From contig CAZZLX010000001.1 of NCBI GenBank assembly GCA_964655235.1, positions 1,842 through 65,841 of the forward strand: a DNA stretch of 64,000 nucleotides, read 5' to 3'. This document shows, in pieces, positions 2,884-55,378 of this stretch. This DNA comes from an uncultured Rhizobium sp. Lineage in GTDB: Bacteria; Pseudomonadota; Alphaproteobacteria; SHVZ01. Each line of letters opens with the position of its first letter. Within the stretch, counting starts at the first letter, position 1. Both the position numbers and the translations under genes were made by a program. The notes beneath the pieces were generated by a model, which was not told where the DNA came from, made no database searches, and worked only from the letters and a program-made list of their open reading frames with translations.

Positions 2884-2915
2884 ATGGTACTTTTCTATCT
2901 CCCGACCGTGCCGAA

Positions 2916-3941: not shown

Positions 3942-3960
3942 GGCGGTTGGACGTACGAGC

Positions 3961-6258: not shown

Positions 6259-6286
6259 TCGTCCGCAACCTGGACTTAAGGAATCG

Positions 6287-8161: not shown

Positions 8162-8173
8162 GCACCCACCGCC

Positions 8174-9007: not shown

Positions 9008-10844
9008 GAAAGCTCGCGTCGAGCATCTCGATCACCTTAACGATGACGGCCGACCAATCACCAGGCGAGGGCTGACGGAAGAGCCGGACGCTCGGATACC
9101 AGGGGCTGTCCGTTCGATCGCGAAGCCAGCGCCAGTCCGGCGGCTCGTGCAGCAGCACCCATGTCGGCCGTCCGAGAGCGCCGGAGAGATGCGCGATCGC
9201 CGTATCCGAGGTGATCACCAGGTCGAGCTTCGATATCAGCGCCGCGGTGTCGGACATGTCGGAGACCAGGGGCATCGGGTCAGCCATGCCGTCCGGAAGC
9301 GGTTCCTCCTCCCTGCGATCGAGGACGAGGGAAAGGAGATGGGGGCCCGCGATCCGCAGCAGCGGCGATACGGCGGCATAGCCGGGAGAGCGGTGCCGAT
9401 CCATGCGGAAGCGCGGATTGCCCCGCCAGCAGATGCCGATGCGTGGCTGCGGAAGATCATCGATCTGCAAAGCCCAGGCCGCGACGGCGGTCGGGTCGGG
9501 AGCGAGATAAGAGGCGGCAACGGGAAGCGCGGCCAGGGTCGGTGCGAAGATGGCGCCGAGTTCCATCAAGCCGCAGGACAGGTCGACGGTACCAGGGTCG
9601 CTGCCGATGTCGATCACGCGCGAGACTCCGGGCATTCGGCCGATCAGGCCGTGGAGCGTGTGGGCGCATTCGACGATCACCGTGCTCACACGCTTCGCGG
9701 CTGACGGGATGAAACGCGCGAACTGGATGGTGTCCCCGAGAGCCTGTTCCGGCTCGGCGCGAAGCACCAGGCGAGCAGCGCGGTCGACACGTCCGTCCCA
9801 GGCGCGCGCGCCTGGCGTCGGCCGGAAGTGGCGGTGACTGACGCAGCGCCATCGGGCCGAGAATCCTCTCCAACCTGCCGCGCAGTCGCCGTCCAGAAGC
9901 GTGATCATCGAAAGATTGAGCGTGGCTTCCGGAAAATCCCGAGCGACGGCCTGCACACGGCGAAAGCGAACGGACGCGCCGCTCGTGTCACCGACTTCGA
10001 TGCGCCGGTTCCCCGAAAGAAGAAGGGAGTGAGCGAACGCCGGCTCCGCCGCCAGCGCGCGTCGCAGTCCTCGATCGGTGCTTGGAAAGTCGCCCGCAGC
10101 CGACGCCACGAGCGCGAGGTTGTGCCAGGCGGACGCCATCTCCGGCACGATCGTGCCTGCGCGTCGGAAGGCGCAGTCGGCGTCCCGAGAACTCTGGCCG
10201 CGATGGGCTTGGAGGCCCAGGACCAGCCAGCTACCGGCATCCGCCGGAAGCAGGAGCAGCGCTTGGCAGGCATGTCGTTTTGCCGCGTCGATCTCATCGC
10301 GCGCCAGGAGAGCCTCGGCCAGGGCACGCAATGTCGATCCGTCGTCGTCCGCCAAGGCCAAGGACCGATAGAGAGGCCCAGTGCCGTCGCCTCCGAGCGA
10401 CGACAAGGCGAAACCCAGATCCCGCCACCGCGCCGACGCGCCTGGATCGAGCGCCGTCGCGCGCCGAAGTGCGCGAACGGCGGCGAGAGGATTCGCGATG
10501 CGCTGCGCCACGGAGGCGATGTCGTTCCAGGTATCCGGCGAGTCGGGTCGGGCAGCGGCCGCCCGCTCCAGCATCCCCAGGCCGACCGCCGGGCCCTCTC
10601 CGAGATGCGCATAGGCGGCGAGGCGCCAAGCATCGGCATGGGCGGGCAGCTCGATAAGGATCAGCCGGGACTTCGATCGTGTAGCGCGGAGATCGCCGCG
10701 GGCATAGGCGTCGACGGCCTCGGCGAGAAGCGCGCCGGGCGTCGCCGGGTCATTGTCCCTAGACAATGCTTGTCCTAAACTCCTGCGTCTTGGGCCAGCG
10801 ATATAGCGGCCAGAAGGCCGGCGACGCAAGGCGACGGCGCCCAT
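8991..10844 (-). CDS. TPR-repeat protein with C-terminal GT9-like domain
   Basis: The true start is the internal ATG at 10844 (MGAVALRRRPSG...). The 325 aa upstream of it in the 942-aa ORF are Ser/Thr/Arg-rich antisense of gspE. The C-terminus has RIGICWRGNPRF...SPGYAAV...LVITSDTAIAHLSGALGRPTWVLL...DWRWL...SPWYPSVRLFRQ, which is RfaF/WaaC-like. Confidence 0.85.
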   Translation of the reverse strand: MGAVALRRRPSGRYIAGPRRRSLGQALSRDNDPATPGALLAEAVDAYARGDLRATRSKSRLILIELPAHADAWRLAAYAHLGEGPAVGLGMLERAAAARPDSPDTWNDIASVAQRIANPLAAVRALRRATALDPGASARWRDLGFALSSLGGDGTGPLYRSLALADDDGSTLRALAEALLARDEIDAAKRHACQALLLLPADAGSWLVLGLQAHRGQSSRDADCAFRRAGTIVPEMASAWHNLALVASAAGDFPSTDRGLRRALAAEPAFAHSLLLSGNRRIEVGDTSGASVRFRRVQAVARDFPEATLNLSMITLLDGDCAAGWRGFSARWRCVSHRHFRPTPGARAWDGRVDRAARLVLRAEPEQALGDTIQFARFIPSAAKRVSTVIVECAHTLHGLIGRMPGVSRVIDIGSDPGTVDLSCGLMELGAIFAPTLAALPVAASYLAPDPTAVAAWALQIDDLPQPRIGICWRGNPRFRMDRHRSPGYAAVSPLLRIAGPHLLSLVLDRREEEPLPDGMADPMPLVSDMSDTAALISKLDLVITSDTAIAHLSGALGRPTWVLLHEPPDWRWLRDRTDSPWYPSVRLFRQPSPGDWSAVIVKVIEMLDASFPIRRQ

Positions 10845-10887
10845 TCCGTGTGCGACAGGACATGACGATTCCGAGGATGCTCCCCGG

Positions 10888-12633
10888 TTGACCCTCACCA
10901 CGTCACAACATGTCGGCTCTGCGCATCCGGCGCCCTCGCTGTCGCCGCGGATTGGCGAGCTGTTGATCGCGAAAGGCGCGATCGGCCAGGAAGACCTCGA
11001 AAAGGCGCTGGCGTTCCAGGCCGAGTACAGCGGTCGGCTCGGCAGCATCCTCGTCCGCATGGGCGCGCTGTCGGAAGCCGAGCTCCTGACCGTGCTCTCG
11101 GCGCAGCTCGGCATTCCGGTGCTCGAACCCGAGGAGGTTCCCAAGGCGACGCAACCGGTCCTCGCCGCGATCGAGCAGGCGAAGCTTCCGCTCGCCTGGT
11201 GGCTGGACCAGGAGGTCGTCGCCTGGGAAGCCGCGGACGGGCCGATCCACGTCATCGCTCGCGATCCGATGGAGGACAGCCTCGTCGAGATCATCGCCGG
11301 CGCCTTCGCCGGCCATGCGATGAGCTGGTTCCTCTGCCGCAACCAGGACGTCGACCACGGGCTCGAGCTGCTTCGCGCGATCAGCAGCGCCAACGAACGG
11401 GTCGGTGCCGACATCTCGCAGCTGCGCGAGATGGCCGATGAGGCCCCGGTCGTCGAGCTCGTCGCCAACACGCTTTCGCAGGCCTTCAACGAAGGCTCGT
11501 CGGACATCCATATCGAGCCGAGCGAGCGCAACTTCCGCATCCGCTTCCGCGTCGACGGCGTGCTACAGACCCGATTCACGCTGCCGCGCGAACGTTTCGA
11601 CGCCGTCGCCTCTCGCGTGAAGCTCATCTCGGGGATCGACATCGCCGAGCGTCGCCTGCCGCAGGACGGACGCATGAGCGCGCGGCTCAGCGGCAAGGAC
11701 GTGGACGTGCGCGTCTCCTCGGTCCCCGGCGTCTGGGGCGAGTCCATCGTGATGCGTCTTCTGCCGAAGGAGCGGAAGGCCTTCTCGCTGGATCGGCTCG
11801 GCATGGAAGCCGACCACATCGCGCTCTATGGCCAGGCGATCCAGGAGCCGCACGGGATCATCCTGGTCACCGGTCCGACCGGCTCGGGCAAGTCGACGAC
11901 GCTCTACGCCAGCCTGGAAGCCATCAACGACGGACAGCAGAAAATCATCACGGTCGAGGATCCGGTCGAATACAACGTCCCCGGGATCTCTCAGATCCAG
12001 GTCCATGCCGACATCGGCTACGACTTCGCGCGCGCGCTCCGCGCCATCCTGCGCCAGGATCCCGATACGATCATGATCGGCGAAATCCGTGACGTGGAGA
12101 CCGCGGCCATCGCGGTGCAATCGGCGCTGACCGGCCATCTGGTGTTCTCGACGCTTCACACCAACGATGCGCTCGGTGCGTTTACCCGCCTGATCGACAT
12201 GGGCGTCGAACCCTTCCTCGTCGCGACCTCCGTCCGCCTGGTGATGGCGCAACGCCTGGTTCGCAAGCTTTGCTCGGATTGTGCGACGCCCACCGAAGTG
12301 CCGGCGGAGATCATGACGGAGATCGCCGGGATCAGGCAGGCTCATCCGTCTCTTTTCACCAAGTCCGCGAACTTCCGTCATCCCAAAGGCTGCAGGGCCT
12401 GCCAGGGGATCGGATACAGGGGCCGGATCGCCGTCTACGAGATGGCGGTCGTGGAATCTGAGCTCCACGATGCCGTGCTGCGCCATGCGACGTCCCGCGA
12501 GCTCAAGCAGATCGCCGAGCGTGGCGGGCATCGCACCCTGCGCGAGGACGGTTTCATCAAGGTCTGGCGAGGCGAGACCAGCGTCGAGGAAGTGGCCCGC
12601 GTGACCGGTCTCGGCGAAACATCCGATGAGTAG
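10888..12633 (+). CDS. gspE: Type II secretion ATPase GspE
   Basis: N-terminal GspE_N-like domain (LGELLIAKGAIGQEDLEKALAFQAEYSGRLGSILVRMGALSEAELL). Walker A is GPTGSGKSTTLYA; Asp box and Walker B are present; the tetracysteine C-terminus is CSDC...CRAC. The start is TTG at 10888 per the ORF track and has not been verified. Confidence 0.9.
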   Translation: MTLTTSQHVGSAHPAPSLSPRIGELLIAKGAIGQEDLEKALAFQAEYSGRLGSILVRMGALSEAELLTVLSAQLGIPVLEPEEVPKATQPVLAAIEQAKLPLAWWLDQEVVAWEAADGPIHVIARDPMEDSLVEIIAGAFAGHAMSWFLCRNQDVDHGLELLRAISSANERVGADISQLREMADEAPVVELVANTLSQAFNEGSSDIHIEPSERNFRIRFRVDGVLQTRFTLPRERFDAVASRVKLISGIDIAERRLPQDGRMSARLSGKDVDVRVSSVPGVWGESIVMRLLPKERKAFSLDRLGMEADHIALYGQAIQEPHGIILVTGPTGSGKSTTLYASLEAINDGQQKIITVEDPVEYNVPGISQIQVHADIGYDFARALRAILRQDPDTIMIGEIRDVETAAIAVQSALTGHLVFSTLHTNDALGAFTRLIDMGVEPFLVATSVRLVMAQRLVRKLCSDCATPTEVPAEIMTEIAGIRQAHPSLFTKSANFRHPKGCRACQGIGYRGRIAVYEMAVVESELHDAVLRHATSRELKQIAERGGHRTLREDGFIKVWRGETSVEEVARVTGLGETSDE

Positions 12634-13834
12634 CTTCCGTTACGAGGCGATCAGCAGCGACGGCAGCCAGCTCGACGGAACGATCGCCGCGACCGACGAA
12701 CGCGAAGCGCATCGCGAGCTGAAGCGGCGAGGGCTTACCGCGCTTTCGATCGAGCGTACCGGCGAGGTGCGCGGGAAAACGAAGGGCCGGCGAGGCGGCC
12801 GCGTCACGCAGCGCGATTTGATCACCATCGTCGCCGAATTCGCCACCCTGCTGCAGGCGGGTCTTCCGATTGCGGATGCACTGGCGGCACTTGCCGATGC
12901 GGCGAGCAAGCCGATGCTCGCCGACGGGCTCACGGAGATCTCCCGGCGGCTCAAGCGGGGCGATCGCGTGCCCGCGGCGATCCGCGCCGGACTTCCCGGG
13001 CTTCCGGAATACGCCTATCTGCTGATCGAGGCGGGCGACCGCACCGGTCAACTCGCCCAGGCGCTCAAGGATACCGCCAAGCAGCTCGACTACGACGAGC
13101 GTGTGCGCCAGGACCTGCGCCAGGCTTTGACCTATCCGCTCTTCCTGGTGGCCGCCGGCGTCGCCGCCGTCATCTTCATCCTGACGGTCGTCGTGCCGCG
13201 CTTCAGCACCATGTTCGGCGCGCGCTTCAACGAGCTGCCGCTGCTTTCCCAGATCGTGATGTCGGCAGGCCTGTTCGCCAAAGACAATTGGCAGTGGCTG
13301 CTGATCGCGGCCGCCGTCGTGGCGGTCGGCGGCGCCATCCTCCTGCGTCGTCCGGAGGTCAGGATGGCGATCGCGGAAGCAGGGCTCCGCATCCCGGTGA
13401 TCGGTCCTTGGCTGCTCAACATCGAGACGGCGCGATGGGCGAACGTTCTGGCGACGCTGCTCGCCAATCGCGTCGCGCTGATGGATGCGCTCGATCTTGC
13501 CGGCAAGAGCGTCGGCGTACGCTCCCTGGCCGAGCGCTTGGACCAGGTGAAGCGAGTCGTTCGCGGAGGTGCCGCGCTGTCGCGGGCGCTGACCGACTAC
13601 ACGCCGTTCGATGCCGCCGCCATCGGTCTCGTGCGGGTCGGTGAGAAGGCCGGCAACATGCCCCAGATGCTGGGATCCCTCGGCGCCATGCTCGACGAGC
13701 AGAGCCGTGCCCGGATGAAGCGGGTCTTGGCATTGATCGAGCCGGTAGCGATATTGATGATCGGTGGCATCATCGGTGTCTTCGTGACCGCCATCATTCT
13801 CGCCATAACCAGCGTGAACACGTTGCCCCTATGA
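12626..13834 (+). CDS. gspF: Type II secretion inner-membrane platform protein GspF
   Basis: 402 aa with three TM segments and two GspF repeats. The ATG overlaps the gspE stop. Confidence 0.88.
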   Translation: MSSFRYEAISSDGSQLDGTIAATDEREAHRELKRRGLTALSIERTGEVRGKTKGRRGGRVTQRDLITIVAEFATLLQAGLPIADALAALADAASKPMLADGLTEISRRLKRGDRVPAAIRAGLPGLPEYAYLLIEAGDRTGQLAQALKDTAKQLDYDERVRQDLRQALTYPLFLVAAGVAAVIFILTVVVPRFSTMFGARFNELPLLSQIVMSAGLFAKDNWQWLLIAAAVVAVGGAILLRRPEVRMAIAEAGLRIPVIGPWLLNIETARWANVLATLLANRVALMDALDLAGKSVGVRSLAERLDQVKRVVRGGAALSRALTDYTPFDAAAIGLVRVGEKAGNMPQMLGSLGAMLDEQSRARMKRVLALIEPVAILMIGGIIGVFVTAIILAITSVNTLPL

Positions 13835-14295
13835 TCCAGTCCCCTCGTCCGATCCGGCTTCGCCGCGCCCTGCAGCACGGCTTCACGCTGCTCGAGATTC
13901 TCGTCGTCCTGGTCATCATCGGCCTGCTGGCCGGCCTGGTCGGTCCGCGTCTGCTGTCGCAGGTCGACCGCGGCAAGAACACGACCGCGGAAGCACAGAT
14001 CAAGATGCTGAAGAGCTCGCTGGAGACGATGCGCCTCGACCTCGGTCGTTTCCCCACGACCGAAGAGGGACTAGAATTTCTGGTGACCGCGCCCGCGGAT
14101 CCGGCGCTCCGCGCCAGGTGGGTCGGTCCATATCTGGACGGCAAGATCCCGCTCGATCCATGGGGAAACCCTTATCAGTATTCGGTGCCAGGTCGTGACG
14201 GACAGCCCTTCGCGCTCTACAGCTATGGCGGTGAAGGCAGGCCCGGCCCCGGTGGCGTGGTCGCCGGTATTGGATACCTGCCGCCGGCGAGATGA
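13831..14295 (+). CDS. gspG: Major pseudopilin GspG
   Basis: Prepilin motif G|FTLLEILVVLVIIGLLAG and T2SS-G signature DPWGNPYQY. ATGA overlap with the gspF stop. Confidence 0.9.
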   Translation: MIQSPRPIRLRRALQHGFTLLEILVVLVIIGLLAGLVGPRLLSQVDRGKNTTAEAQIKMLKSSLETMRLDLGRFPTTEEGLEFLVTAPADPALRARWVGPYLDGKIPLDPWGNPYQYSVPGRDGQPFALYSYGGEGRPGPGGVVAGIGYLPPAR

Positions 14296-14734
14296 CTCCG
14301 GCGGCTTCACGCTGCTGGAGATCCTGCTCGTCGTCGCGTTCGTCGGGCTGATGGTCGGCATCGCCGGACCGCGGCTGTCGACGATCTACGACCGTATGAT
14401 GTTCGCGTACCGCGAAACCGACCTGCTTCGGCAGATCAACGATCTCGGCGTCACCGCGCTCACGCGCGGCGCCGACATGCGCCTGTCGACGCAGCCGCCG
14501 ATGCCGCCCGCGAGCACGCGGCCCAACCGGCAGGCGCCCGCACCGCTCCGCTCGGCCGAGGAGGCGAAGCTCGCCCTTCCCGCCGGCTGGCAGTTGGTCG
14601 CCGAGCCGCCGATCGAGTATCGCCTGGACGGGTTCTGCAAGGGCGGACGGATCTCGATCATCGCCGGGGACCGCAAGTCGGATTGGCGGCTCGACGCGCC
14701 TCACTGCTTCGCGCAACCGACGGCCGCGCAATGA
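14270..14734 (+). CDS. gspH: Minor pseudopilin GspH-like (start uncertain; ORF extends to 14195)
   Basis: Contains GG|FTLLEILLVVAFVGLMVG. TTG at 14270 would give a 12-aa leader. Position and size fit GspH. Confidence 0.7.
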   Translation: MDTCRRRDDSGGFTLLEILLVVAFVGLMVGIAGPRLSTIYDRMMFAYRETDLLRQINDLGVTALTRGADMRLSTQPPMPPASTRPNRQAPAPLRSAEEAKLALPAGWQLVAEPPIEYRLDGFCKGGRISIIAGDRKSDWRLDAPHCFAQPTAAQ

Positions 14735-15174
14735 GCGCCGTGCGCAGGCAAAGCGGCTTCACCCTGCTCGAGGCTCTCGTGGCGCTCGTGCTGATCACGA
14801 TAACCCTGATCCCTCTCTACGAGTGGATCGGGCGTTCCCTGGGCGCAGCCGCCAAGATGGCCGACACCACGAAGCAGGCCGAAGCGCAGCTCGCGGCCCT
14901 GGCCGTCATCTCGCGCCTCAATCCGCTGGAGGAGGCGAGCGGGACCAGCGACGCCGGTCCGTATCGCGTGCGCTGGCAGGCGACCGCGAAGGTCGAGCCG
15001 GTCGACAATGTCGCCTATCCGCGCGGCATCGGCCTTTACCAGGTCGCCCTCTACGACGTTCGCGCCCAGGTCCTCAAGGACGGGGGCGTTTGGTTCGAGT
15101 TTCATGTCGATCAGATAGGGTATCGCCGTGTCCGCAACCCGATGGTCTTCCAGGCGCCGCCGCCCCAGCGCTAG
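14731..15174 (+). CDS. gspI: Minor pseudopilin GspI-like
   Basis: MSAVRRQSG|FTLLEALVALVLITITL. ATG at 14731 overlaps the gspH stop (ATGA). 147 aa. Confidence 0.8.
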   Translation: MSAVRRQSGFTLLEALVALVLITITLIPLYEWIGRSLGAAAKMADTTKQAEAQLAALAVISRLNPLEEASGTSDAGPYRVRWQATAKVEPVDNVAYPRGIGLYQVALYDVRAQVLKDGGVWFEFHVDQIGYRRVRNPMVFQAPPPQR

Positions 15175-15784
15175 GCGGCGGGCTGGCGGCTTCACCATCA
15201 TCGAGGCGCTCGTCGTCCTCATGATCGTCGGCTTCGCCGCGTCGATCCTGACGGACTCCCTGTCGCGGGTCTTCGATCTCCGGACGCGGCTCGCGGCCTA
15301 TCTCGATGCGGCTGCGTCCAGCCGCATGACGTTGAGCTGGCTTCGGCGCAGCGTCGCGGGCCTGATGCCGGACTTCGTCGACGGTTCGATCCGCTTCCGC
15401 GGTACCGCGGCTGAGTTCTCGGGCATTACGCTCTCGGCTCCCGGCGCAGATCCCGGCGTGCCGCAGCGTGTCGCGTGGCGCCTCGCCCCCGATGCCGCGA
15501 CCAAGGGTGTGCGCCTGGAGACGCAGGTCGCGGACGGCCCGTGGGTCGGCGTCGCCGCATGGCCGGAAAAGGCCGGCCGACTGAGCTACGACGGAGGCGA
15601 CGGTCAGTGGGTCGAGGAGTGGCCACCGACCTTCGCGACGCCGACGACGCCTCAGATCCCACGATACATCCGCATCGTGATCGGAGCCGGCGCCGACGCC
15701 TGGAGCACGACTCTCGCGTCGAACGGACCCCGCGAGGCGAGGGAGCGGACGGGCGACATCGCGCGCTCGGTGATCGGGCAATGA
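15128..15784 (+). CDS. gspJ: Minor pseudopilin GspJ-like
   Basis: Prepilin-like RRRAGG|FTIIEALVVLMIVG. The GTG start gives an unusually long Arg-rich leader. 218 aa. Confidence 0.75.
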   Translation: MSATRWSSRRRRPSARRRAGGFTIIEALVVLMIVGFAASILTDSLSRVFDLRTRLAAYLDAAASSRMTLSWLRRSVAGLMPDFVDGSIRFRGTAAEFSGITLSAPGADPGVPQRVAWRLAPDAATKGVRLETQVADGPWVGVAAWPEKAGRLSYDGGDGQWVEEWPPTFATPTTPQIPRYIRIVIGAGADAWSTTLASNGPREARERTGDIARSVIGQ

Positions 15785-16842
15785 GGCGCGGGACGCAGCA
15801 CGGGTTCATTCTGGTCCTGACGCTCGGGATGATCGCGGCGTTCGCCTTCGGCGCGTCGATCCTGGGCGAATGGGCCACCCGATCTCTGCGCGATGCCAGG
15901 GCTGCGCGCGAGCAGGCGTCGACCGAGCGGGCGATGATGTCCGCGAGGTCGAACCTCGTTTTCCAGCTGATGACCAACTTCCTCAGCCCCCGCGGACTGG
16001 AGCTGCCGGATTCCTTCGCGGGCGGCATGGAGATGCGGACCCAGGGGGCTGCCGACCCGCTCGGTGCCGCGACTCAGGGCTCGCGCCTGCTTCGCCTCGA
16101 CGGCCGCACCTACGTCTACGACGACGACATCATCGTCTCCGTCCAGGACGCGCGCGGCCTGTTGAACCTGAACGTCGTGCAGGAGATCGAGCTTTCCCGG
16201 CTGCTGACCCGCTTCGGGGTTCCGTTCGAAGTCCATCAGAGCCTGATCAACCGCCTCGCCGACTTCCGGGAGCCGGGCGATCTGGCGCGTCTCGGCGGCG
16301 CGAAGCGCCCGCAGTATCTCGAGGCCGGGCGCCCGCCGCCGCCGGGCCAGCCGCTGCAGACCCCCTGGCAGGCAGCGGCCATCCTTGGATGGGACGAGTA
16401 CCCGCAGCTCTGGCGCAATCCCGGCCTGCCGACCTACACCTCGGCAGGGATCGTCGTCGGCCTCAACGTGAACACTGCGCCGCTGGCGCTCCTCTCGGCG
16501 CTCTACGACATTCCGGAAGACCAGCTGCCGCGGCTGGAACAGGCACGGCAGTCGGTCATCCTGCACTCGGCGAACGACCTCGCGGCCTATGGCGCACGAT
16601 CGCCGCAAGGCGATCCGCTGCGCTTCATTTCGTTCCCGTCGGACACTTTCGTCGTGACCTTTTACGGGCGTCGCTTCGCTCGAAGAACCGTTATGTCTCT
16701 TGCGCTTACACCGAACGGGCTCAACCAGCCCTGGCGTATTGACTACGCTCTCGAAATGCCGTTCGGTACCGCCGATGGCCAGCGAATTCAAAGCACTGTG
16801 GCGCGATTTCCGGCCGTCATCGCCGATACTTCTCCACGTTGA
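15781..16842 (+). CDS. gspK: Minor pseudopilin GspK-like
   Basis: ATG at 15781 overlaps the gspJ stop (ATGA). MRRGTQHGFILVLTLGMIAAF is GspK-type (no conserved Glu5). 353 aa. Confidence 0.75.
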   Translation: MRRGTQHGFILVLTLGMIAAFAFGASILGEWATRSLRDARAAREQASTERAMMSARSNLVFQLMTNFLSPRGLELPDSFAGGMEMRTQGAADPLGAATQGSRLLRLDGRTYVYDDDIIVSVQDARGLLNLNVVQEIELSRLLTRFGVPFEVHQSLINRLADFREPGDLARLGGAKRPQYLEAGRPPPPGQPLQTPWQAAAILGWDEYPQLWRNPGLPTYTSAGIVVGLNVNTAPLALLSALYDIPEDQLPRLEQARQSVILHSANDLAAYGARSPQGDPLRFISFPSDTFVVTFYGRRFARRTVMSLALTPNGLNQPWRIDYALEMPFGTADGQRIQSTVARFPAVIADTSPR

Positions 16843-17839
16843 CAGGATCGAGAGTCCGCCGAAGCCGGGCCGCCAGGTCGCCGTCAGCCGGGCGCTGACG
16901 CCTTATCGGCGCCTGTCGCTCCCGAGCGGGATTCCGCCGGACAAGCGGCTGAATGCGCTGAGGTTGCAGGCGCTCGAGTGGGCGCCCTATGCACGCCCCG
17001 GAATGATGTTCGACCTTTCGGACGACGGAGCCGGGGTCTGGACCTGGGACAGCGATCGCGTGGAGAAGGTCGCGCGCGACAACGGACTCGATCCGGTCTC
17101 GCTCCGCTTCGTGCCCGAGACGGCGCTGCACCGGCCCATGGCTGAGGGACTGCGACTCGTCTCCTGTCTCGATGGGTTCGAGGGCCAAGTCTGGCGCGAC
17201 AAGCGCCTCATGGCGAGCCGCTGGTGGCCGTCGATACCGCCGGGCGAGGATTGGGTGCGGTTCCAGCGGGCCGCCGGGCTCGATCCCCATGCCGTATCGC
17301 CGGACCTCGCCGCGCCTGTGGCCGAGGAATGGCTTCGCAGCCCCTGGCCCCGCCGCGGCTTCGCTTGGTCCTTCAAAGGCATTCCAACAGGCCAGCTGGC
17401 TGCCGCCGCTGCCATGGTTTTCCTGGCGATCACCGCCTATCAGATCGGGGAAGTGGCCCATCTCGGCCGTGCGGTCGCCTCGCTGGCCCGGGCCAACGCG
17501 GCTCTCGCCGCGACCGCGAGGCCTCTCGAGACGGCACGTGCGCAGACCCTTGATGCGAACGCTCGCGCGCAGGCGATCTTCGCGCTCGAGAATCGCGACA
17601 ATCAGCTGACGCTGATGGCCCGTGTCGCCGAGCAGCTGCCGACCAACGGGACCCAGCTCACCAGCTGGACCTACCAGGACGGCGATCTCACGATCACGAT
17701 GGCGAGCGCGGCGCAGCCAATCGACAGCTCCTTCGTCATCCGCAAGCTTGAGGGGATTCCGAACTTCTCCGTGTCCCAGGTCGACCCGTCGGCCGACGGC
17801 AAGAGCCTGCTCGTCCGCATCAAGGTGCGGCCTAAATGA
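16775..17839 (+). CDS. gspL: GspL-like cytoplasmic-membrane T2SS component
   Basis: 354 aa with a single central TM (LAAAAAMVFLAITAYQIG) and a GspL-like domain organisation. Position is between gspK and gspM. Confidence 0.7.
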   Translation: MASEFKALWRDFRPSSPILLHVDRIESPPKPGRQVAVSRALTPYRRLSLPSGIPPDKRLNALRLQALEWAPYARPGMMFDLSDDGAGVWTWDSDRVEKVARDNGLDPVSLRFVPETALHRPMAEGLRLVSCLDGFEGQVWRDKRLMASRWWPSIPPGEDWVRFQRAAGLDPHAVSPDLAAPVAEEWLRSPWPRRGFAWSFKGIPTGQLAAAAAMVFLAITAYQIGEVAHLGRAVASLARANAALAATARPLETARAQTLDANARAQAIFALENRDNQLTLMARVAEQLPTNGTQLTSWTYQDGDLTITMASAAQPIDSSFVIRKLEGIPNFSVSQVDPSADGKSLLVRIKVRPK

Positions 17840-18435
17840 ACATTCTTTCGTCGCTGCAGGGCCTGGCCGCACGCTCCGGCGTCGGCACGGAGATCAAGGG
17901 CAATCGCCTCGTCAGGCTTGGCCTCCTCGCCGCGGCGGTGATCCTGTGGGCCAACGTGACTCTGCTTCTGTTCGACAAGACCCGCGAGCTCGAGGCGCGG
18001 ATCATGACGCTTGCCGAGGAACAGCGCCGCTTCGAGGCGATCGCCAAGGATCCGCAATGGCCGCAGCGTCAGGCGGCGTCGGAAGCCTTGGCCGAACGCG
18101 CGCTGCAGCGTCTTTGGCCGGCCGAGTCCGAGGCGATCGCCAGGGCCGACTTCCAGGAGTGGGTTCTGAAGACGGCGCGCGAGAGCGGACTTGGCCGTCC
18201 GACCGTGCGCGTCGAGCGTTCGGTCGTGACCAAGGGGCCTCCCGGCGCCGATCCGATCGCCGCCCAGCTTTCTGCCGATTTCACGCCGGAGGGACTCACC
18301 GAGTTCCTGAAAAGAATATCGACCGGCCCTCGGATTACCGTGGTGACGTCGCTTCGTGTACAGAAGACACCGGTGCCGCGGATCGATGCGGTCATCACGG
18401 CCTTTACGCGGTCGGCACCTGGAGCGACGTCCTAA
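17836..18435 (+). CDS. gspM: GspM-like T2SS component
   Basis: 199 aa with an N-terminal TM (LVRLGLLAAAVILWANVTLLLF) and a periplasmic domain. ATGA overlap with gspL. Confidence 0.7.
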   Translation: MNILSSLQGLAARSGVGTEIKGNRLVRLGLLAAAVILWANVTLLLFDKTRELEARIMTLAEEQRRFEAIAKDPQWPQRQAASEALAERALQRLWPAESEAIARADFQEWVLKTARESGLGRPTVRVERSVVTKGPPGADPIAAQLSADFTPEGLTEFLKRISTGPRITVVTSLRVQKTPVPRIDAVITAFTRSAPGATS

Positions 18436-18436
18436 A

Positions 18437-18916
18437 ATGGGCCCCGCCGTCTATCGGCTTCTCGCTTTGGGAGTACTGCTGGTCGCCGCTGCCGGCGTGC
18501 TCGGCTGGGTGCGCGCCGACACGCAGGCGAGACTCGGCGCGGCGAGAGGCGGCGAGCCTCCGGCGGTCACCCCGCCACCGCCGTCGACGGTCGCCGCGGA
18601 CCTTGCCGTCCTGGTGCAGCGACAGCCCTGGGGAGCCTCGGCCGCGCCTGCGCCGGTGGCGACCCAAGGAAGCGCGCAGCCGGAAGCACCGGCCGGCAAC
18701 TGGCGGGTCACCGGGATCATGAGCAGCGGAAACGATCGCTATGTGATCCTCATGGTGCAGCCGCAGCCCAACGCTCGCCACATTCTGCGCTATCTTCCCG
18801 TCGGTGAGCGTCTGCCGGACGGTCGGACGATCGAGCGTATCACCGGGGACACTATCCATCTGCGACGGGGAGACCAGGTCAGTGTCTTACGCCTCTATTC
18901 GCCGGGGCAGGGATGA
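18437..18916 (+). CDS. Small GspC/PilP-like secretin-interacting protein (HR domain only, no PDZ)
   Basis: 159 aa with an N-terminal TM and a Pro-rich linker. The C-terminus WRVTGIMSSGNDRYVILMVQPQ...YLPVGERLPDGRTIERITGDTIHLRRGDQVSVLRL resembles the GspC HR / PilP beta-sandwich. Lies immediately upstream of the secretin. Confidence 0.65.
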   Translation: MGPAVYRLLALGVLLVAAAGVLGWVRADTQARLGAARGGEPPAVTPPPPSTVAADLAVLVQRQPWGASAAPAPVATQGSAQPEAPAGNWRVTGIMSSGNDRYVILMVQPQPNARHILRYLPVGERLPDGRTIERITGDTIHLRRGDQVSVLRLYSPGQG

Positions 18917-21051
18917 CGCCTAGCGCCTCCCGATCCGTCATCCGTCGCCGGGCACGCTTTCTCGTCTTGATCGCCGGGATGGTGATCGGTCTCGCCGGCT
19001 GCAGCGCCCTGCGCGTCGGCTCGATCCCGCCGGTGCGTCTTCCCAATGCCCAGGCTCCGGCACCGGCCGACGCCGTCGAGCCGGCCGCGAAAGAGGCGCC
19101 CTGGACGACGAAGGTGACGCCTGGCCGCTCCGCGTCCACCGTCGAGCGGATCTCCGCGACGGCGCCGACCGTCATCGCGCCGGGCGGCCCCGCGGCCGAG
19201 ATCAGTGTCGAGAACATGCCGATCCCGGCATTCATCAATACGGTCTTTGGCGAGACGCTGAGGCTCGCCTTCGACATCGACGCACGCGTCGCGCAGCGCA
19301 ACGACCTGGTCACGCTTCGCACGGGCGGGCCGAAGTCGCCGGCGGAAGTTCTTTCGATCGTGCGCCAGATCCTCGCCGCCTACGGCATCGAGGTCGTCCA
19401 GGCCGACAAGCTGTATCGGATCGTGCCGAGCGAGGCGCTGCTGTCGCAGACGCCGCGCCTTCTCCGTTCGCGCGCGCAGGCCGAAGTCCCGGCCGACCTG
19501 CGTCCGGTCTTCCAGTACGTCGAGGTCAAGAACGTCAAGATGCCGGAGCTGAGAGGTTGGCTCAACGAAGCGTACGGCCAGAAGCTCCGTATCATCCAGC
19601 TCAACGAGTTCAACGCGATGCTGGTGATGGGCCTGCCCGAGGACGTGCGCGCCGGCCTCGAGGCCATCCGCCTGCTGGATCAGCCGAGGCTCGCGGGGCG
19701 CCGCAGCGTGCGCATCGAGCCCGTCTACTGGGCCGTCGATCGCCTGGCACTCAAGATCGCCGAGGTGATGAAGATCGAGGGCTACAACACGGCGATCGGA
19801 TCCGTGCCGGCATCGGCGATCAACATGCTGCCGATCGAGCAGACCAACGCCCTGCTGGTCTTCGCCACCGACCAGACGCTTCTCGACCACGTGATCGGCT
19901 GGGCAAGGGATCTCGATCAGCCGAGCCAGGCCGATCCGCTGAAGCGCCTCTTCTTCTATCAGGTCCGCAACACCAACGCCGAGACCGTGGCGCAGGTGGT
20001 GTCCCAAGTCATCGAAGGCATGCTCCCGGCCAGCGCCGGCGGTGCCGTCGGCGGCACCGGTGCGAGCGGGGCGGCCGCCCCCGCCCCTGCCCCGACCGCG
20101 GCGACCTCGGGCGTCGGATCGGTCGCCGCACCGCCGGCCGGCACCCAGCGCACCATCATCGCGACCAAGCGACTGGTCGTGGATCTCGCGCGGAATGCCA
20201 TCATCTTCCAGGGCACCGCAGAAGAGTATGCGCAGGTCCGTCAACTTCTCGAGACGCTCGACCAGCCTACCCGGGAAGCGCTCATCGAAGTGACCGTGGC
20301 GGAAGTCACTCTCGACAACACGACGCAGCTCGGCGTCGAGTGGGCCCTCGACCTCGCCGGCCTCGGCGGCAACCAGGTGAAGTTCGGCACCCTCGGCGGC
20401 CTCGGCATCGGCACCAAGGGCCTCAACTTCTCGATCCTCAACTCTGCCGGCGAAACCCGGGCGCTGATCAACGCCCTGGCGAGCAGCAACCGCGCGACCA
20501 TTCTCTCGAGCCCGAGGCTCGTCGCGCGGAGCGGCGGCGAGGCACGGATCCAGGTTGGCAGCGAAGTGCCCCTGCTGACCAGCCAGACAACCAGCAATCA
20601 GCAGGTCGGCGGCAACACCGGCATCCTCCAGACCATCCAGTACCGGAACACCGGCGTCCTGCTGACGGTGAAGCCGATCATCCACGGCTCGCGACGCGTC
20701 GACCTCGACGTCAGCCAGGAGGTCAGCGAAGCGACGACCAACAAGACGTCGGACCTCAACACGCCGGTGATCTCGAGCCGCAAGGTGAATACCCAGCTCT
20801 CGCTCGGCGACGGAGCGACGGTGATCATCGGCGGCCTGCTTCGCGAAACCGCGAGCACCGGCAACTCGGGCATCCCGGGATTGCGGGACCTCCCCGGCGT
20901 CGGCCAGCTCTTCCGCACCAACAACGATGCGAGCGGCCGGACCGAGCTGATCATGCTGATCACGCCCTACGTGATCACCTCCGACGACGAGGCGCGGACC
21001 ATCACGGAAACCTTCCGCCGTCAGCTCGGAGACTGGGTGACTCTCGACTGA
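18913..21051 (+). CDS. gspD: Secretin GspD, predicted lipoprotein (liposecretin)
   Basis: C-terminal secretin domain GLLRETASTGNSGIPGLRDLPGVGQLFRTNNDASGRTELIMLITPYVITSDD. The N-terminus VLIAGMVIGLAGC has a lipobox L-A-G-C. ATGA overlap with the preceding gene. Confidence 0.9.
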   Translation: MTPSASRSVIRRRARFLVLIAGMVIGLAGCSALRVGSIPPVRLPNAQAPAPADAVEPAAKEAPWTTKVTPGRSASTVERISATAPTVIAPGGPAAEISVENMPIPAFINTVFGETLRLAFDIDARVAQRNDLVTLRTGGPKSPAEVLSIVRQILAAYGIEVVQADKLYRIVPSEALLSQTPRLLRSRAQAEVPADLRPVFQYVEVKNVKMPELRGWLNEAYGQKLRIIQLNEFNAMLVMGLPEDVRAGLEAIRLLDQPRLAGRRSVRIEPVYWAVDRLALKIAEVMKIEGYNTAIGSVPASAINMLPIEQTNALLVFATDQTLLDHVIGWARDLDQPSQADPLKRLFFYQVRNTNAETVAQVVSQVIEGMLPASAGGAVGGTGASGAAAPAPAPTAATSGVGSVAAPPAGTQRTIIATKRLVVDLARNAIIFQGTAEEYAQVRQLLETLDQPTREALIEVTVAEVTLDNTTQLGVEWALDLAGLGGNQVKFGTLGGLGIGTKGLNFSILNSAGETRALINALASSNRATILSSPRLVARSGGEARIQVGSEVPLLTSQTTSNQQVGGNTGILQTIQYRNTGVLLTVKPIIHGSRRVDLDVSQEVSEATTNKTSDLNTPVISSRKVNTQLSLGDGATVIIGGLLRETASTGNSGIPGLRDLPGVGQLFRTNNDASGRTELIMLITPYVITSDDEARTITETFRRQLGDWVTLD

Positions 21052-21131
21052 GCGGGACGGCGCCAAGCTTCGACGAACGGTCGCTGCGCCGGTCCATCGC
21101 CGAGACGCCGTCGTCCCCTCCGCTGCTGAAC

Positions 21132-22361
21132 ATGCTCGGCGCGGCACACGGTGTCCGAGGCGACTCTGGTTCCGCCGCGACATGGTTCCGACGTCTGCTG
21201 GACACGGATGTCGGATCAGTCGACGGCATGGTGAACCTGGGCTTCGCCTGCCTGCACGAGCGTCGATGGGCGGAAGCCCTCAGATGGCTGCGGCGGTCGA
21301 TCGCGCTCGTCCCGAGCCATCCTCTCGTTCACTACAATCGCGGCGTCGCGGCACTGCATCTCGGTCGCTTCCCCGAGACGGTGCGGGCCTCCGCCCGGAC
21401 GCGGGTCATCGACCCGTCTCATCGCGACGCGCCGTACAACGAAGCGCTGGCCCGTCTCGCGCTCGGGGATTGGCGCAAAGGCTTCGCTCTTTACGAAAGC
21501 CGCTGGGACGCGCCGAGCTTCCCGATCCGCTGGCGGCCGCCCCCCGGCCGGCGATGGGACGGCCGACCGGCGCCAGGCAAGACCCTGTTGCTGCTTGCCG
21601 AGCAGGGACACGGAGACTCCATCCAGTTCATCAGGTACGCGGCGATGGCGGCTCCGCTCGTCGGACGAGTCGTCGTCGCGGGCCCCCCTCCGCTGCTGCG
21701 ACTCCTGGCGACGGCGCGAGGTGTCGAGCGGGCCGGCGATGCCACGAACGTGCCGACCGACATCGATCTGCACCTGCCGCTGCTGAGCCTCCCCCTGGCA
21801 TTCGGAACCGAGCCCGACACCGTGCCCGCCGATATCCCCTACTTCGATATTCAGGGCGCGCGGATCGGCGGGATCGCCGGCTCGATGCTGTCGACGGACC
21901 AACCGAAGGTCGGCCTCTGCTGGCGGGGCAATCCGGCGTTCTCCGACGACTTCAGCCGTTCGCCCGGCATTTCTGTCATGAAGTCCGTCCTGGTCGTACC
22001 GGGAGTTCAGTTCGTCAGCCTGGTGAAGGAGAAGCGAGCCGGGGAGACTGATGGACTCGGCCTCCTCGATCCCATGGACCAGATGCAGGATTTCTTCGAC
22101 ACGGCGACGCTGATCCGATCTCTCGATCTGGTCATCACCAGCGACACCGCCGTCGCGCATCTTGCAGGTGCGCTGGGACGCCCGGCATGGGTGCTTCTTT
22201 CCGCTGCCGCCGACTGGCGATGGCTGACGAAGGGGGCCGGGTCGCGATGGTATCCGACCATGACGCTGTTCCGCCAATCGGCACTCGGGCGATGGGACGA
22301 GGTCGGAGACCGTGTCGGATCGGCGCTGGCGGCCTGGCGGCACAAGTGGTCGCCCGCATGA
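21132..22361 (+). CDS. Short-TPR protein with C-terminal GT9-like domain
   Basis: True start is the ATG at 21132 (MLGAAHGV). The 934-aa ORF 19557..22361 is an artefact that runs through gspD in another frame. Motifs: LLLLAEQGHGDSIQFIRYA, KVGLCWRGNPAF, LVITSDTAVAHLAGALGRPAWVLL, RWYPTMTLFRQ. Confidence 0.82.
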   Translation: MLGAAHGVRGDSGSAATWFRRLLDTDVGSVDGMVNLGFACLHERRWAEALRWLRRSIALVPSHPLVHYNRGVAALHLGRFPETVRASARTRVIDPSHRDAPYNEALARLALGDWRKGFALYESRWDAPSFPIRWRPPPGRRWDGRPAPGKTLLLLAEQGHGDSIQFIRYAAMAAPLVGRVVVAGPPPLLRLLATARGVERAGDATNVPTDIDLHLPLLSLPLAFGTEPDTVPADIPYFDIQGARIGGIAGSMLSTDQPKVGLCWRGNPAFSDDFSRSPGISVMKSVLVVPGVQFVSLVKEKRAGETDGLGLLDPMDQMQDFFDTATLIRSLDLVITSDTAVAHLAGALGRPAWVLLSAAADWRWLTKGAGSRWYPTMTLFRQSALGRWDEVGDRVGSALAAWRHKWSPA

Positions 22362-42023: not shown

Positions 42024-42027
42024 TCGC

Positions 42028-44097: not shown

Positions 44098-44398
44098 CGG
44101 ACTCGCTCTGGAACGCTCGCTTCGCCTTTCGCCTGACCCGACGCCAGGGCTCCTCGCTGACGGGAGCGCTGCTTGATCGATAAAACCTTAATACAATCAA
44201 CGCGCTATATCGATCGATCAAACTCGAGCCGACCGGACTTCCTAACGCGGTATCAAGTGCCCATATACAGGCCAGCGTCCTCGTGGACACGCTCCACGGG
44301 CAAGGGCGCCGCAAGCGCTTCTCCCAAACGTTGACGAATTTCGCCGGGAGGATGTCGACGACGTCCTCCCGGACCTTTCGTCCGACCTCTACGGAAAA

Positions 44399-44776: not shown

Positions 44777-44967
44777 GAAGTCGCTCCTCGCATTGTCGGC
44801 TCCGCGCCGACGGATCCAGCGCCACAGATCTATCATCAACCGGTGCAAGAGATCGAGCCGCTTGGCCCTGCAACCGAGCGTTACGAGGCAATGGCCGAGC
44901 CCTGAAGGGGTGGTCGCCCCGACCTCGATCTCCTATAGATTGGTCGTTCAACACCACCGGACACTCG

Positions 44968-55374: not shown

Positions 55375-55378
55375 CGCC

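Follow-up and report, generated by a model that had tools for sequence, protein, structure and literature searches.

Among described type II secretion systems (T2SSs), the Xanthomonas Xps system is published as having its genes in the order E F G H I J K L M C D; its GspC contains an HR region and lacks a PDZ domain, its secretin has been shown by experiment to be lipidated, it has no pilotin, and its gspO gene is located elsewhere (PMC11981180, PMC7777525). The Aeromonas S-layer T2SS comprises sps E-M, a 166-aa orf2, spsD, and vapA within an O-antigen cluster (PMC4413209), and VapA, Slr4, and NpdA are surface-layer proteins whose genes are tied to a dedicated T2SS (PMC10765051).

Here, we analyze a 64-kb window, the whole stretch of DNA under study, in which 11 consecutive ORFs on the forward strand exactly span positions 10888-21051. 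From HMM matches, a structure model, and gene position, these are assigned as gspE F G H I J K L M, a minimal HR-only gspC, and gspD (a slash marks the end of a leader or signal).

10888..12633, + strand: gspE, secretion ATPase (581 aa, TTG start; PF00437, E = 1.2e-134)
10948..11106, + strand: predicted MshEN_N c-di-GMP-binding module of GspE (residues 21-73; NF053729, 60.6 bits, cut-off 38)
12626..13834, + strand: gspF, inner-membrane platform (402 aa; PF00482 twice)
13831..14295, + strand: gspG, major pseudopilin (154 aa; leader MIQSPRPIRLRRALQHG/FTLLE)
14270..14734, + strand: gspH-like minor pseudopilin (G/FTLLE prepilin motif; start uncertain, 14195, 14225, or 14270)
14731..15174, + strand: gspI-like minor pseudopilin (147 aa; MSAVRRQSG/FTLLE)
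15128..15784, + strand: gspJ-like minor pseudopilin (218 aa, GTG start; N_methyl, E = 3.5e-5)
15781..16842, + strand: gspK (353 aa; MRRGTQHG/FILVL, without Glu5)
16775..17839, + strand: gspL (354 aa; from structure model and homologue lengths)
17836..18435, + strand: gspM (199 aa; NF040576 T2SS_GspM_XpsM, E = 1.2e-14)
18437..18916, + strand: minimal gspC (159 aa: TM helix, Pro/Ala linker, HR-like beta domain)
18913..21051, + strand: gspD, secretin (712 aa; lipobox L-A-G-C at residues 27-30, nt 18991-19002)

The first-pass annotation of this DNA had described 11 consecutive gsp genes, secretin last, as an operon of unusual composition. The gene content and order stand, with all ORFs present and intact, but the composition is not unusual, the same pattern having been published for Xps and the same order for the Aeromonas system. 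The cluster is a complete, architecturally ordinary T2SS of the Xps/Sps type, a known kind of system found here in an uncultured alphaproteobacterial clade whose closest relatives are Rhodospirillales-like MAGs. It shares with Xps the eleven-gene order (xpsE F G H I J K L M C/N D), the HR-only, PDZ-less GspC, a lipobox-bearing secretin (lipoprotein status being experimental for XpsD and predicted here), the lack of a pilotin and of GspA, GspB, and GspN, a prepilin peptidase outside the cluster, and a four-helix MshEN_N-type extension at the N-terminus of the ATPase; the NCBIfam XpsF, XpsH, XpsI, and GspM_XpsM models give partial matches, all far under their cut-offs. Unlike Xps, the system resides in an alphaproteobacterium, and its 159-aa GspC has no second periplasmic region, where XpsC has a single helix. 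Whereas Xps forms three transcription units and has many enzyme substrates, all junctions here are overlapping or abutting and a single dedicated cargo is suspected. The Aeromonas Sps/Aps system, compared by order and sizes, has the same order and products very close in size (SpsM 198 versus 199 aa here, Orf2 166 versus 159, SpsD 743 versus 712, and VapA 469 versus 453 for the proposed cargo), and is likewise embedded in a glycan-biosynthesis locus.

All 11 genes are intact and under purifying selection. Their substitutions relative to locus L001 (87.7% identity) are strongly biased to the third codon position (149 of 170 in gspE, 160 of 184 in gspD, 75 of 89 in gspK), and the genes are therefore real and coding. 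Linkage of all genes by ATGA or GTGA overlaps, as originally proposed, holds in part: ATGA overlaps occur at five of the 10 junctions (F/G, H/I, J/K, L/M, C/D) and GTGA overlaps at none, the others being joined by overlaps of 8 nt (E/F), at least 26 nt (G/H), 47 nt (I/J), and 68 nt (K/L) or separated by a 1-nt spacer (M/C). Since no gap exceeds 1 nt, "tightly coupled" is still a fair description.

The sequence evidence supports identification of the cluster as a T2SS and not a type IV pilus or competence system, because GspG exceeds the NCBIfam trusted cut-off (TIGR01710, 159.8 bits against 88.85; PF08334, E = 3.1e-31), GspD, GspF, and GspM match best to T2SS models, GspK lacks Glu5, and the GspL model shows the T2SS-specific fused architecture. 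GspD scores 297.7 bits with TIGR02517 (E = 1.7e-88) against 140.9 for PilQ, and GspD proteins make up the top 11 matches in a PDB search; GspF scores 292 bits with TIGR02120 against 172 with PilC models. GspM reaches 54.4 bits with NF040576, below the cut-off of 60, with a weak match to PF10741, and GspK matches NF037980 T2SS_GspK over residues 7-309 (E = 9.3e-10) and, weakly, PF03934 and PF21687. It is the ATPase that would suit a type IVa or MSHA-like pilus or competence system misread as a T2SS: its N-terminus is of the MshE/PilB type, its closest solved structures are PilB of Geobacter and Myxococcus (pairwise 434 and 423 bits, against 388 for GspE structures), and the PilB model TIGR02538 spans it end to end at 520 bits, while TIGR02533 GspE gives 561 bits over residues 172-573, short of its cut-off of 630. 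True T2SS ATPases, XpsE and PA14_29490 among them, however, also have MshEN domains (PMC5013675). With GspK, a fused-architecture GspL, an XpsM-type GspM, and an HR-type GspC all present, and no PilM, PilN, PilO, PilP, PilT, or large pilin gene at the cluster, we consider a misread pilus very unlikely. HMM assignment of each component, proposed earlier as a check, thus favors a T2SS over PilB/C/Q, with GspH, GspI, GspJ, and GspC matching weakly and placed with the help of gene position.

Among the minor pseudopilins, GspH matches NF047827 XpsH over residues 27-158 (E = 4.5e-5), with a C-terminal Cys pair conserved in the alignment, and GspI matches the GspI and XpsI models at E = 1.6e-4 each, its assignment depending partly on gene position. 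The same is true of GspJ, whose clade profile aligns weakly with three GspJ structures (positions 97-180, E about 0.2). Long Arg-rich leaders had been noted for both GspJ and GspH. That of GspJ is borne out, with 21 basic residues (MSATRWSSRRRRPSARRRAGG/FTIIE) from the sole available start, GTG 15128, and leaders of 15-17 residues conserved in its subclade; that of GspH hinges on the start codon, as TTG 14270 yields a 12-residue leader (MDTCRRRDDSGG/F), which fits homologue leaders of 3-16 residues. GspL had no match in HMM searches. In its AF2 model (mean pLDDT 77), Foldseek matches the N-terminal domain to PilM and the cytoplasmic domains of PulL (5tkw) and GspL (4pht, 1yf5), and the C-terminal domain to the periplasmic domains of PulM/PulL/XcpY. 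The start at 16775 is supported by full-length homologues of 354-355 aa.

GspC matches PF11356 T2SSC (E = 0.02, residues 12-151) and NF041515 GspC_delta (E = 4e-4), and its clade profile matches the GspC structure 7oio (E = 0.002). HMM searches found no PDZ or other domain after the HR region, in agreement with the earlier reading that no PDZ-containing GspC is present; of the label "HR-only GspC/PilP-like," the first half applies and the second does not, because the protein has no lipobox. The lipobox reported in the secretin was found again in its N-terminus, MTPSASRSVIRRRARFLVLIAGMVIGLAGC, and is kept in 85 of 120 clade members, most of the others appearing N-terminally truncated. GspD is thus a predicted liposecretin, and because the GspD model stops at residue 698 of 712, it has no S-domain. 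Hxc is a low-substrate-number T2SS with its cargo gene encoded alongside; it has a different gene order, is phosphate-regulated, and secretes a phosphatase. Its secretin, HxcQ of Pseudomonas aeruginosa, is a self-piloting lipoprotein (PMC7777525), as is predicted for GspD here. The reported lack of gspO in the window also holds, with a best tblastn E value of 0.4 across the 64 kb for GspO from a related T2SS locus and no Peptidase_A24 match in the locus context scans.

The most likely main cargo, judged from sequence and synteny, is encoded in the same island.

37123..38484, + strand: proposed dedicated cargo (453 aa; Ser+Thr 31%, charged residues 4%)

This protein has no match in Pfam or NCBIfam, a predicted Sec-type signal ending ASA/SS, and two invariant Cys; such a signal and Cys pair are what a periplasmic folding intermediate would be expected to have. 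Its AF2 model (pLDDT 70) contains three beta-sandwich domains, with fold matches to generic Ig-like adhesins at TM scores of about 0.2, and in sequence it resembles neither the S-layer protein NpdA nor any solved structure. NpdA and Slr4, like it, carry a signal peptide, have masses of about 45-52 kDa, lack known domains, and are encoded next to a T2SS cluster (PMC10765051); their gsp clusters belong to Beta- and Gammaproteobacteria, unlike the one here. We regard the 453-aa protein as a candidate surface, matrix, or S-layer-like protein. Its Ser+Thr content sets it apart from VapA, and any S-layer role or lattice formation is putative.

Export of a locus-encoded cargo, as first suggested, is supported by synteny for the 37123-38484 product only, as homologues adjoin the T2SS clade in several loci whose arrangements differ. 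At L005 (secretin 56% identical), the homologue (48%, E = 5e-89) neighbors gspE in divergent orientation. At L012 and L013 (33-35% identical), it lies directly upstream of gspD, matching the Aeromonas arrangement of a dedicated cargo gene adjoining the secretin. L004 and L008 (secretin 49-51% identical) have the permuted order K-L-M-C-D-E-F-G, and Ser/Thr-rich signal-peptide proteins upstream of gspK are remote cargo homologues (hhalign probability 86%, E = 5e-6, 352 columns including both conserved Cys). The cargo family was always found among glycosyltransferases in the loci scanned. These neighbors of the T2SS clade had not been recorded in the first-pass annotation.

Two glycosyltransferase genes with TPR and Glyco_transf_9 matches flank the operon.

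8991..10790, - strand: TPR-GT9 glycosyltransferase divergent from gspE (conserved in L001, L002, and L006)
21132..22361, + strand: TPR-GT9 glycosyltransferase after gspD

The latter, also absent from the earlier annotation, has its first canonical start 81 nt past the gspD stop, with conserved coding beginning earlier; there is no terminator, and no room for one, between the two genes. The arrangement is common to L006 and L007, and the gene is probably co-transcribed with gspD. Whereas the Aeromonas locus makes the LPS O-antigen that tethers the S-layer, the neighbors here are TPR-linked protein glycosyltransferases.

Together, these observations suggest a T2SS dedicated to exporting one Ser/Thr-rich surface protein of its own island, and with moderate confidence we favor a functional Xps/Sps-type system with the 453-aa protein as main cargo, likely c-di-GMP-tuned and with the cargo putatively O-glycosylated. 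It is less likely, though plausible, that this is a general-purpose housekeeping T2SS for assorted hydrolases, its island position reflecting shared ancestry or island assembly. Xps, of matching architecture, secretes many enzymes (PMC11981180, PMC7777525), the cargo gene lies 16 kb from the operon, and no cargo homologue and no glycosyltransferase lies within 10 kb at L010, the most remote of the T2SS relatives examined; conversely, at L011 and L014 the cargo has no T2SS gene closer than 10 kb. Several supporting loci are close relatives that share their context by common descent, and the loci of identical context (L001, L002, L006/L007, and L014) are likewise close relatives; independent T2SS-cargo arrangements number only three or four. 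Yet adjacency to the cargo outlasts three rearrangements (divergent from gspE, upstream of gspD, upstream of gspK) while cargo identity drops to 33% and below, a TPR-GT9 gene abuts gspD, and GspC lacks the second periplasmic domain usually proposed for docking diverse substrates (PMC11981180). Export of polysaccharide or slime made by the neighboring glycosyltransferases, as recently proposed for cyanobacterial and myxobacterial GspD-family secretins, would fit a locus dense in glycosyltransferase and sugar-nucleotide genes, and T2SS secretins are reported to be needed for slime secretion (PMC12475490). We find this highly improbable: the glycosyltransferases are mainly TPR-GT41 and TPR-GT9, families known to modify proteins, the context proteins scanned include no polysaccharide polymerase or export genes, and a full pseudopilus set accompanies a conserved protein cargo candidate.

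In the favored dedicated system, GspF, GspL, and GspM with the minimal HR-only GspC would form the inner-membrane platform, and GspE would drive the assembly of a pseudopilus built of GspG with H-I-J-K at its tip, the pseudopilins being matured by a prepilin peptidase presumably encoded elsewhere in the genome. GspD would provide the outer-membrane channel, targeted by its own N-terminal lipid anchor without a pilotin, with a linker of ~70 residues spanning down to the N0 domain. The island's many cytoplasmic TPR-GT41/GT9 enzymes would O-glycosylate the cargo ahead of export, making it probably a glycoprotein.

Secretion is probably also tuned by c-di-GMP, as predicted from the intact MshEN module of GspE. 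This module contains two intact 24-residue motifs, RIGELLIAKGAIGQEDLEKALAFQ and RLGSILVRMGALSEAELLTVLSAQ, separated by a 5-residue spacer, as defined for MshEN domains, which bind c-di-GMP in MshE and the T2SS ATPase PA14_29490 (PMC5013675). Such a tandem pair, with this spacing, in the N-terminal part of an ATPase of the GspE/PilB family places GspE alongside those two proteins as a putative c-di-GMP binder, although MshE serves a pilus and not a T2SS. Both binding motifs are kept in GspE but lost in XpsE, and they are largely kept across the GspE clade. A CxxC...CxxC motif is also present in GspE, and the two-motif module itself is an addition to the first-pass annotation.

Eleven plus-strand ORFs lie between positions 10888 and 21051 in the order gspE, F, G, H, I, J, K, L, M, C, D, with the largest gap between neighbors amounting to 1 nt, in a window whose G+C content is 64–70% throughout, apart from one short patch described below. 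L001, a metagenome-assembled genome (MAG) contig labelled Alphaproteobacteria, is collinear with positions 2630–22074 at 87.7% nucleotide identity, and L002, a second MAG contig, with positions 2663–13386 at 75%. In the comparison with L001, the excess of third-codon-position substitutions is overwhelming in all eleven genes (for example, 149 of 170 in gspE, 112 of 146 in gspF, 75 of 89 in gspK, and 160 of 184 in gspD), which rules out chance ORFs and indicates intact genes under purifying selection. The first-pass annotation, which had recognized a complete type II secretion system (T2SS) operon here, was thus largely right. It had also described the genes as coupled by ATGA or GTGA start–stop overlaps; the junctions are indeed tight, but ATGA overlaps occur at only five of the ten (F/G, H/I, J/K, L/M, and C/D) and GTGA overlaps at none, the remainder consisting of overlaps of 8 nt (E/F), at least 26 nt (G/H), 47 nt (I/J), and 68 nt (K/L) and a 1-nt spacer (M/C). 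A promoter and terminator scan of window positions 10–24.5 kb was uninformative because the sites were no more common than in shuffled sequence, and an exact-sequence look-up of GspF returned no record.

Products of the operon (10888–21051, plus strand) in gene order, with their lengths and principal matches
GspE, 581 aa: PF00437, E = 1e-134; GspE HMM, 561 bits over the core (residues 172–573); PilB HMM, 520 bits end to end
GspF, 402 aa: 292 bits, versus 172 for PilC
GspG, 154 aa: major pseudopilin; TIGR01710, 159.8 bits, above the trusted cut-off of 88.85
GspH, 154 aa: weak XpsH match, E = 4.5e-5 over 130 residues
GspI, 147 aa: weak XpsI/GspI matches, E = 1.6e-4
GspJ, 218 aa: weak matches to GspJ structures, E about 0.2, to three chains in the same region
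GspK, 353 aa: model match over the whole length, E = 9e-10; N-terminus G↓FILVL, without Glu5
GspL, 354 aa: assigned from a structure model
GspM, 199 aa: GspM_XpsM model, 54.4 bits, just below the cut-off of 60
GspC, 159 aa: three weak, concordant GspC matches (T2SSC, E = 0.02; GspC_delta, E = 4e-4; clade profile against 7oio, E = 0.002)
GspD, 712 aa: TIGR02517, the best model, 297.7 bits over residues 100–698, below the equivalog cut-off of 351; PilQ, 140.9 bits

One alternative to a T2SS is a type IVa pilus or competence system, and the ATPase is the component that leans toward it: in pairwise comparison with PDB sequences, the Geobacter and Myxococcus PilB proteins score 434 and 423 bits, versus 388 bits for GspE. 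By these scores, the ATPase is the sole discordant component of the operon, and a better fit to PilB, PilC, or PilQ, which the first-pass annotation had named as the outcome that would count against it, is found at most weakly and for this one protein of the three. The secretin points the other way, its best eleven matches among solved structures all being T2SS GspD chains. The tenth gene encodes a transmembrane helix, a Pro/Ala linker, and a beta domain of ~70 residues, a topology that, together with its position in the operon, is compatible with GspC; the transmembrane helix and the missing lipobox rule out PilP. No PilM, PilN, PilO, PilP, PilT, or PilQ-type secretin was found in the operon or among the scanned context proteins. 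With GspG, K, L, M, and D and a probable GspC assigned and PilMNOP and PilT absent, the system as a whole is, by its component matches, a T2SS.

Two sets of components were harder to place. The prepilin motif G↓F(T/I)(L/I)(L/I/V) occurs in four genes besides gspG, taking the form G↓FT(L/I)(L/I)E with Glu5 in H, I, and J, and the minor pseudopilin set H, I, J, K is complete, with the individual H, I, and J labels leaning partly on gene order; when the H and I profiles were compared with the PDB, the matches were confined to the generic N-terminal pilin helix. For GspL, neither the HMM search nor a comparison of the GspL-clade profile with PDB sequences produced a match, and the assignment was therefore made from an AlphaFold (AF2) model (15 homologues in the alignment, pLDDT 77). 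In Foldseek searches, its N-terminal alpha/beta domain retrieves PilM and the cytoplasmic domains of PulL (5tkw) and GspL/EpsL (4pht, 1yf5), and its C-terminal ferredoxin-like domain retrieves the periplasmic domains of PulM, PulL, and XcpY, the two being joined by one long membrane and coiled-coil helix. As modeled, this fused layout is that of T2SS GspL. The HMM assignments, the GspL model, and the secretin structure matches together bear out the T2SS identity proposed at first pass.

The proposal that GspD is a liposecretin also holds at the level of prediction, being borne out by the sequence and by conservation in the clade. Among the best 120 of 480 secretin matches at E ≤ 1e-20 (46–100% identity), 85 carry a lipobox, and most of those lacking it look like start-codon truncations; the predicted lipobox is, on this comparison, a feature of the clade and no quirk of the window genome. 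About 70 Pro/Ala-rich residues lie between Cys30 and the N0 domain. The GspD model stops 14 residues before the C-terminus, so that the pilotin-binding S-domain is absent. A search of the 64-kb window for a prepilin peptidase found none, in agreement with the first-pass annotation; in L010, the most distant T2SS examined, gspO adjoins gspE.

The same annotation had considered the composition of the operon unusual. The Xps cluster of Xanthomonas comprises eleven genes, XpsE, F, G, H, I, J, K, L, M, C, and D, with the GspO homologue located outside the cluster and the pilotin absent, and XpsC (formerly XpsN) combines an HR region with a single helix where the PDZ domain would be (PMC11981180). 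Lipidation of the Xps secretin, XpsD, has been shown experimentally. The operon described here shares with Xps the E-to-D gene order with the secretin gene last, a putative GspC without a PDZ domain, the lack of a pilotin, and the absence of gspO from the cluster; lipidation here is predicted from the lipobox. Because no sequence follows the beta domain of the tenth gene product, the PDZ domain and the helix are both absent from this GspC. A second match, with the genes E to M, a small orf, and D in the same order, is the S-layer T2SS of Aeromonas, in which SpsE (551 aa), F (399), G (144), H (123), I (139), J (201), K (340), L (252), M (198), Orf2 (166), and SpsD (743) are followed by vapA (469 aa), the cluster being inserted in an O-antigen cluster (PMC4413209; PMC4483657). 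All four supposedly unusual features (the secretin gene in last place, the missing PDZ domain, the lipobox of the secretin, and gspO outside the cluster) follow the Xps pattern; the earlier reading was wrong because the operon repeats the Xps/Sps blueprint, here in an alphaproteobacterial lineage that is poorly sampled.

The N-terminus of GspE holds a module overlooked at first pass. Residues 21–73 match NF053729, the model for MshE-related c-di-GMP-binding motifs, at 60.6 bits (cut-off 38), and contain two tandem 24-residue motifs, RIGELLIAKGAIGQEDLEKALAFQ (residues 21–44) and RLGSILVRMGALSEAELLTVLSAQ (residues 50–73), separated by AEYSG; the MshEN motif is defined as RLGxx(L/V/I)(L/V/I)xxG(L/V/I)(L/V/I)xxxxLxxxLxxQ in two copies with a 5-residue spacer. 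Across the six clade members examined, the second motif does not vary at all, and the first does so, in some of them, at its first residue only. The MshEN domains of MshE and of the T2SS ATPase PA14_29490 bind c-di-GMP, and XpsE has the same fold with the key residues lost (PMC5013675). With the motifs intact here and lost in XpsE, the system resembles Xps with the sensor still in place, and from these motifs we infer that GspE binds c-di-GMP.

The first-pass annotation further suggested that the system exports glycoproteins encoded in the same locus and named two candidates:
37123–38484, plus strand: candidate cargo, a 453-aa Ser/Thr-rich protein
52514–53302, minus strand: candidate cargo, 262 aa long, in which a signal peptide precedes a sequence containing two repeats; no family match

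The 453-aa protein consists of 31% Ser+Thr, has only 20 charged residues and two invariant Cys, and starts with a Sec-type signal peptide with predicted cleavage at ASA↓SS; a Tat signal was rejected, given that the twin arginine varies among homologues (SRKRLLL, TTRGLLL, STRFLLA). Searches of Pfam and NCBIfam gave no match, and comparison with PDB sequences found no relatives. The AlphaFold model (pLDDT 70) consists of three beta-sandwich domains, for which Foldseek retrieved from the PDB only generic multi-domain Ig-like adhesins and matrix proteins (SpaP, RbmA, MSCRAMMs) at a TM of about 0.2; with such generic, low-scoring matches, a specific fold family is unsupported. A full HMMER scan with the profile of the family, clustered at 50%, yielded 179 representatives, of which 100 have E ≤ 1e-10. 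Among the best 148 of these 179, 84 are 420–520 aa long, of which 82 have a hydrophobic signal-like N-terminus; the medians for the 84 are 24% Ser+Thr, 6% charged residues, and two Cys. None of ten homologues looked up has any name beyond “hypothetical protein.”

The C-terminal beta-sandwich of the family (38125–38445, residues about 335–440) is also seen, as about four matched stretches, in large proteins of the extracellular type, among them RCC1-repeat proteins, a subtilase, and an NHL/TIG protein; Pfam matches to Lamin-tail/MTH865 are weak. On this distribution, the domain may serve several proteins as a common module for surface attachment or secretion. Several homologues (P0121, P0123, and P0138, with 25–28 member sequences) are each the sole gene on a contig of about 1.4 kb; such contigs may derive from abundant transcripts, as for a major surface protein.

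Linkage of surface-layer protein genes to a dedicated T2SS has precedents in VapA–Sps, Slr4, and NpdA–gsp (PMC10765051). Sequence comparison of the 453-aa protein with the S-layer protein NpdA (taken from the supplement of the respective paper) found no similarity (E at least 0.5), and homology between the two was rejected. The decisive evidence for the cargo assignment comes from the comparative loci. In L005, a Rhodospirillaceae MAG locus whose secretin is 56% identical and whose genes follow the same E-to-D order, a 48%-identical cargo homologue (E = 5e-89) with its own signal peptide divergently adjoins gspE. In two further loci, L012 and L013, a 33–35%-identical homologue lies directly upstream of the secretin gene and co-directional with it, the remaining T2SS genes being convergent and a TPR-GT41 gene lying beyond. 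Two loci with 49–51%-identical secretins, L004 and L008, have a permuted operon (K-L-M-C-D-E-F-G-H) flanked by GT4 genes, and the second gene upstream of gspK encodes a Ser/Thr-rich signal-peptide protein that matches the cargo family in profile–profile comparison (probability 86%, E = 5e-6, 352 columns, both Cys kept). In L011 and L014, the cargo gene lies among TPR-GT41 and GT61 genes, as in the window. L010 is a counter-example, with neither a cargo homologue nor glycosyltransferases within 10 kb of its T2SS genes. The hypothesis that the product of 37123–38484 is the cargo thus gains real, purely genomic support from its recurrence beside T2SS genes in rearranged loci. The product of 52514–53302 fared differently: a 59%-identical homologue is encoded in the related island L011 (17050–17775), and no link to T2SS genes was found.

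The operon is embedded in a glycosylation island with about ten TPR-GT41 genes, two of which are a recent tandem duplicate, and several TPR-GT9 genes, of which one is divergently oriented next to gspE and another begins no more than 81 nt downstream of gspD, along with TPR-GT61 and TPR-GT1-like genes and a cluster encoding NeuB, an aminotransferase, and a carbamoyltransferase. The TPR-GTs of the island have no signal peptides. GT41 and GT9-like enzymes are known protein glycosyltransferases, and the substrates of HMW1C and of the TibC/Aah family are glycosylated in the cytoplasm, before export. Cytoplasmic O-glycosylation is therefore the simplest model, in which the Ser/Thr-rich cargo would be decorated before it leaves the cytoplasm. 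The 453-aa protein would then leave the cytoplasm via Sec, acquire its fold and its disulfide in the periplasm, and pass through GspD in a standard T2SS cycle that would employ a self-piloted liposecretin and a minimal GspC, with secretion probably modulated by c-di-GMP via GspE and the system dedicated mainly to this protein. Only tentatively do we extend this scheme to the clade, which might use a c-di-GMP-gated, self-piloting T2SS as the dedicated exporter of a single, heavily O-glycosylated protein of the surface or S-layer-like type. TPR-GT41/GT9 enzymes would modify this protein in the cytoplasm, possibly with nonulosonic acid from the NeuB cluster, before it is handed to Sec and the T2SS; as a whole, this scenario is possible but doubtful. 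To our knowledge, no described T2SS substrate takes the route from cytoplasmic O-glycosylation through Sec to a T2SS.

The machine itself adds little because it repeats the Xps/Sps blueprint, and the cargo hypothesis for 37123–38484 is the part worth following up. The leads are a hitherto unnamed family of secreted Ser/Thr-rich proteins of ~450 aa in which charged residues are very scarce, its repeated genetic link to one liposecretin T2SS clade, and its recurrent association with TPR-bearing protein glycosyltransferases. Should the link prove functional, it would offer a tractable single-cargo T2SS, help with the long-standing question of T2SS substrate recognition, notably as GspC here is without the substrate-docking domain, and provide a bacterial example in which protein O-glycosylated in the cytoplasm is passed on to a T2SS, with c-di-GMP possibly in control.

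Several other features of these loci were noted. In L004 (3503–4663) and L008 (3100–4374), a second signal-peptide protein (386 and 424 aa, about 38% mutual identity), with no NCBIfam match, is encoded beside the remote cargo homologue. Upstream of the TPR-GT9 gene divergent from gspE, the window encodes a protein of ~700 aa with a C-terminal XRE-type HTH (6014–8161), followed by a DUF5672 protein (8162–9007); the HTH protein occupies the same place in the related locus L006 and is thus a possible regulator of the locus. The duplicated TPR-GT41 genes (39972–42131 and 42028–44187, both minus strand) share a tandem duplication, 39990–41024 and 42064–43098, of 1035 nt at 99% identity and an offset of 2074 nt, their C-terminal catalytic halves being near-identical and their TPR halves diverged. 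The sugar-nucleotide cluster at 55337–61551 encodes an RmlD-like reductase, a carbamoyltransferase, a class-III aminotransferase, a GT28/PseG-like enzyme, and NeuB (298 bits), a gene content pointing to a nonulosonic-acid-type sugar as the product, with which the island glycoprotein could be decorated. The patch at 50001–52000 has a G+C content of 0.58, versus 0.64–0.70 elsewhere, and may be a later insertion; the ORF at 50080–50721 within it resembles, as judged by eye, a hexapeptide-repeat acetyltransferase. Finally, 44779–46596 and 46368–48152 encode paralogues whose N-termini carry TPRs and whose C-terminal domain gives only a weak DUF6445 match, and a different nearby gene in L011, without TPR matches, carries 2OG-FeII_Oxy_3; judging from these domains, the paralogues may be protein hydroxylases working beside the glycosyltransferases.
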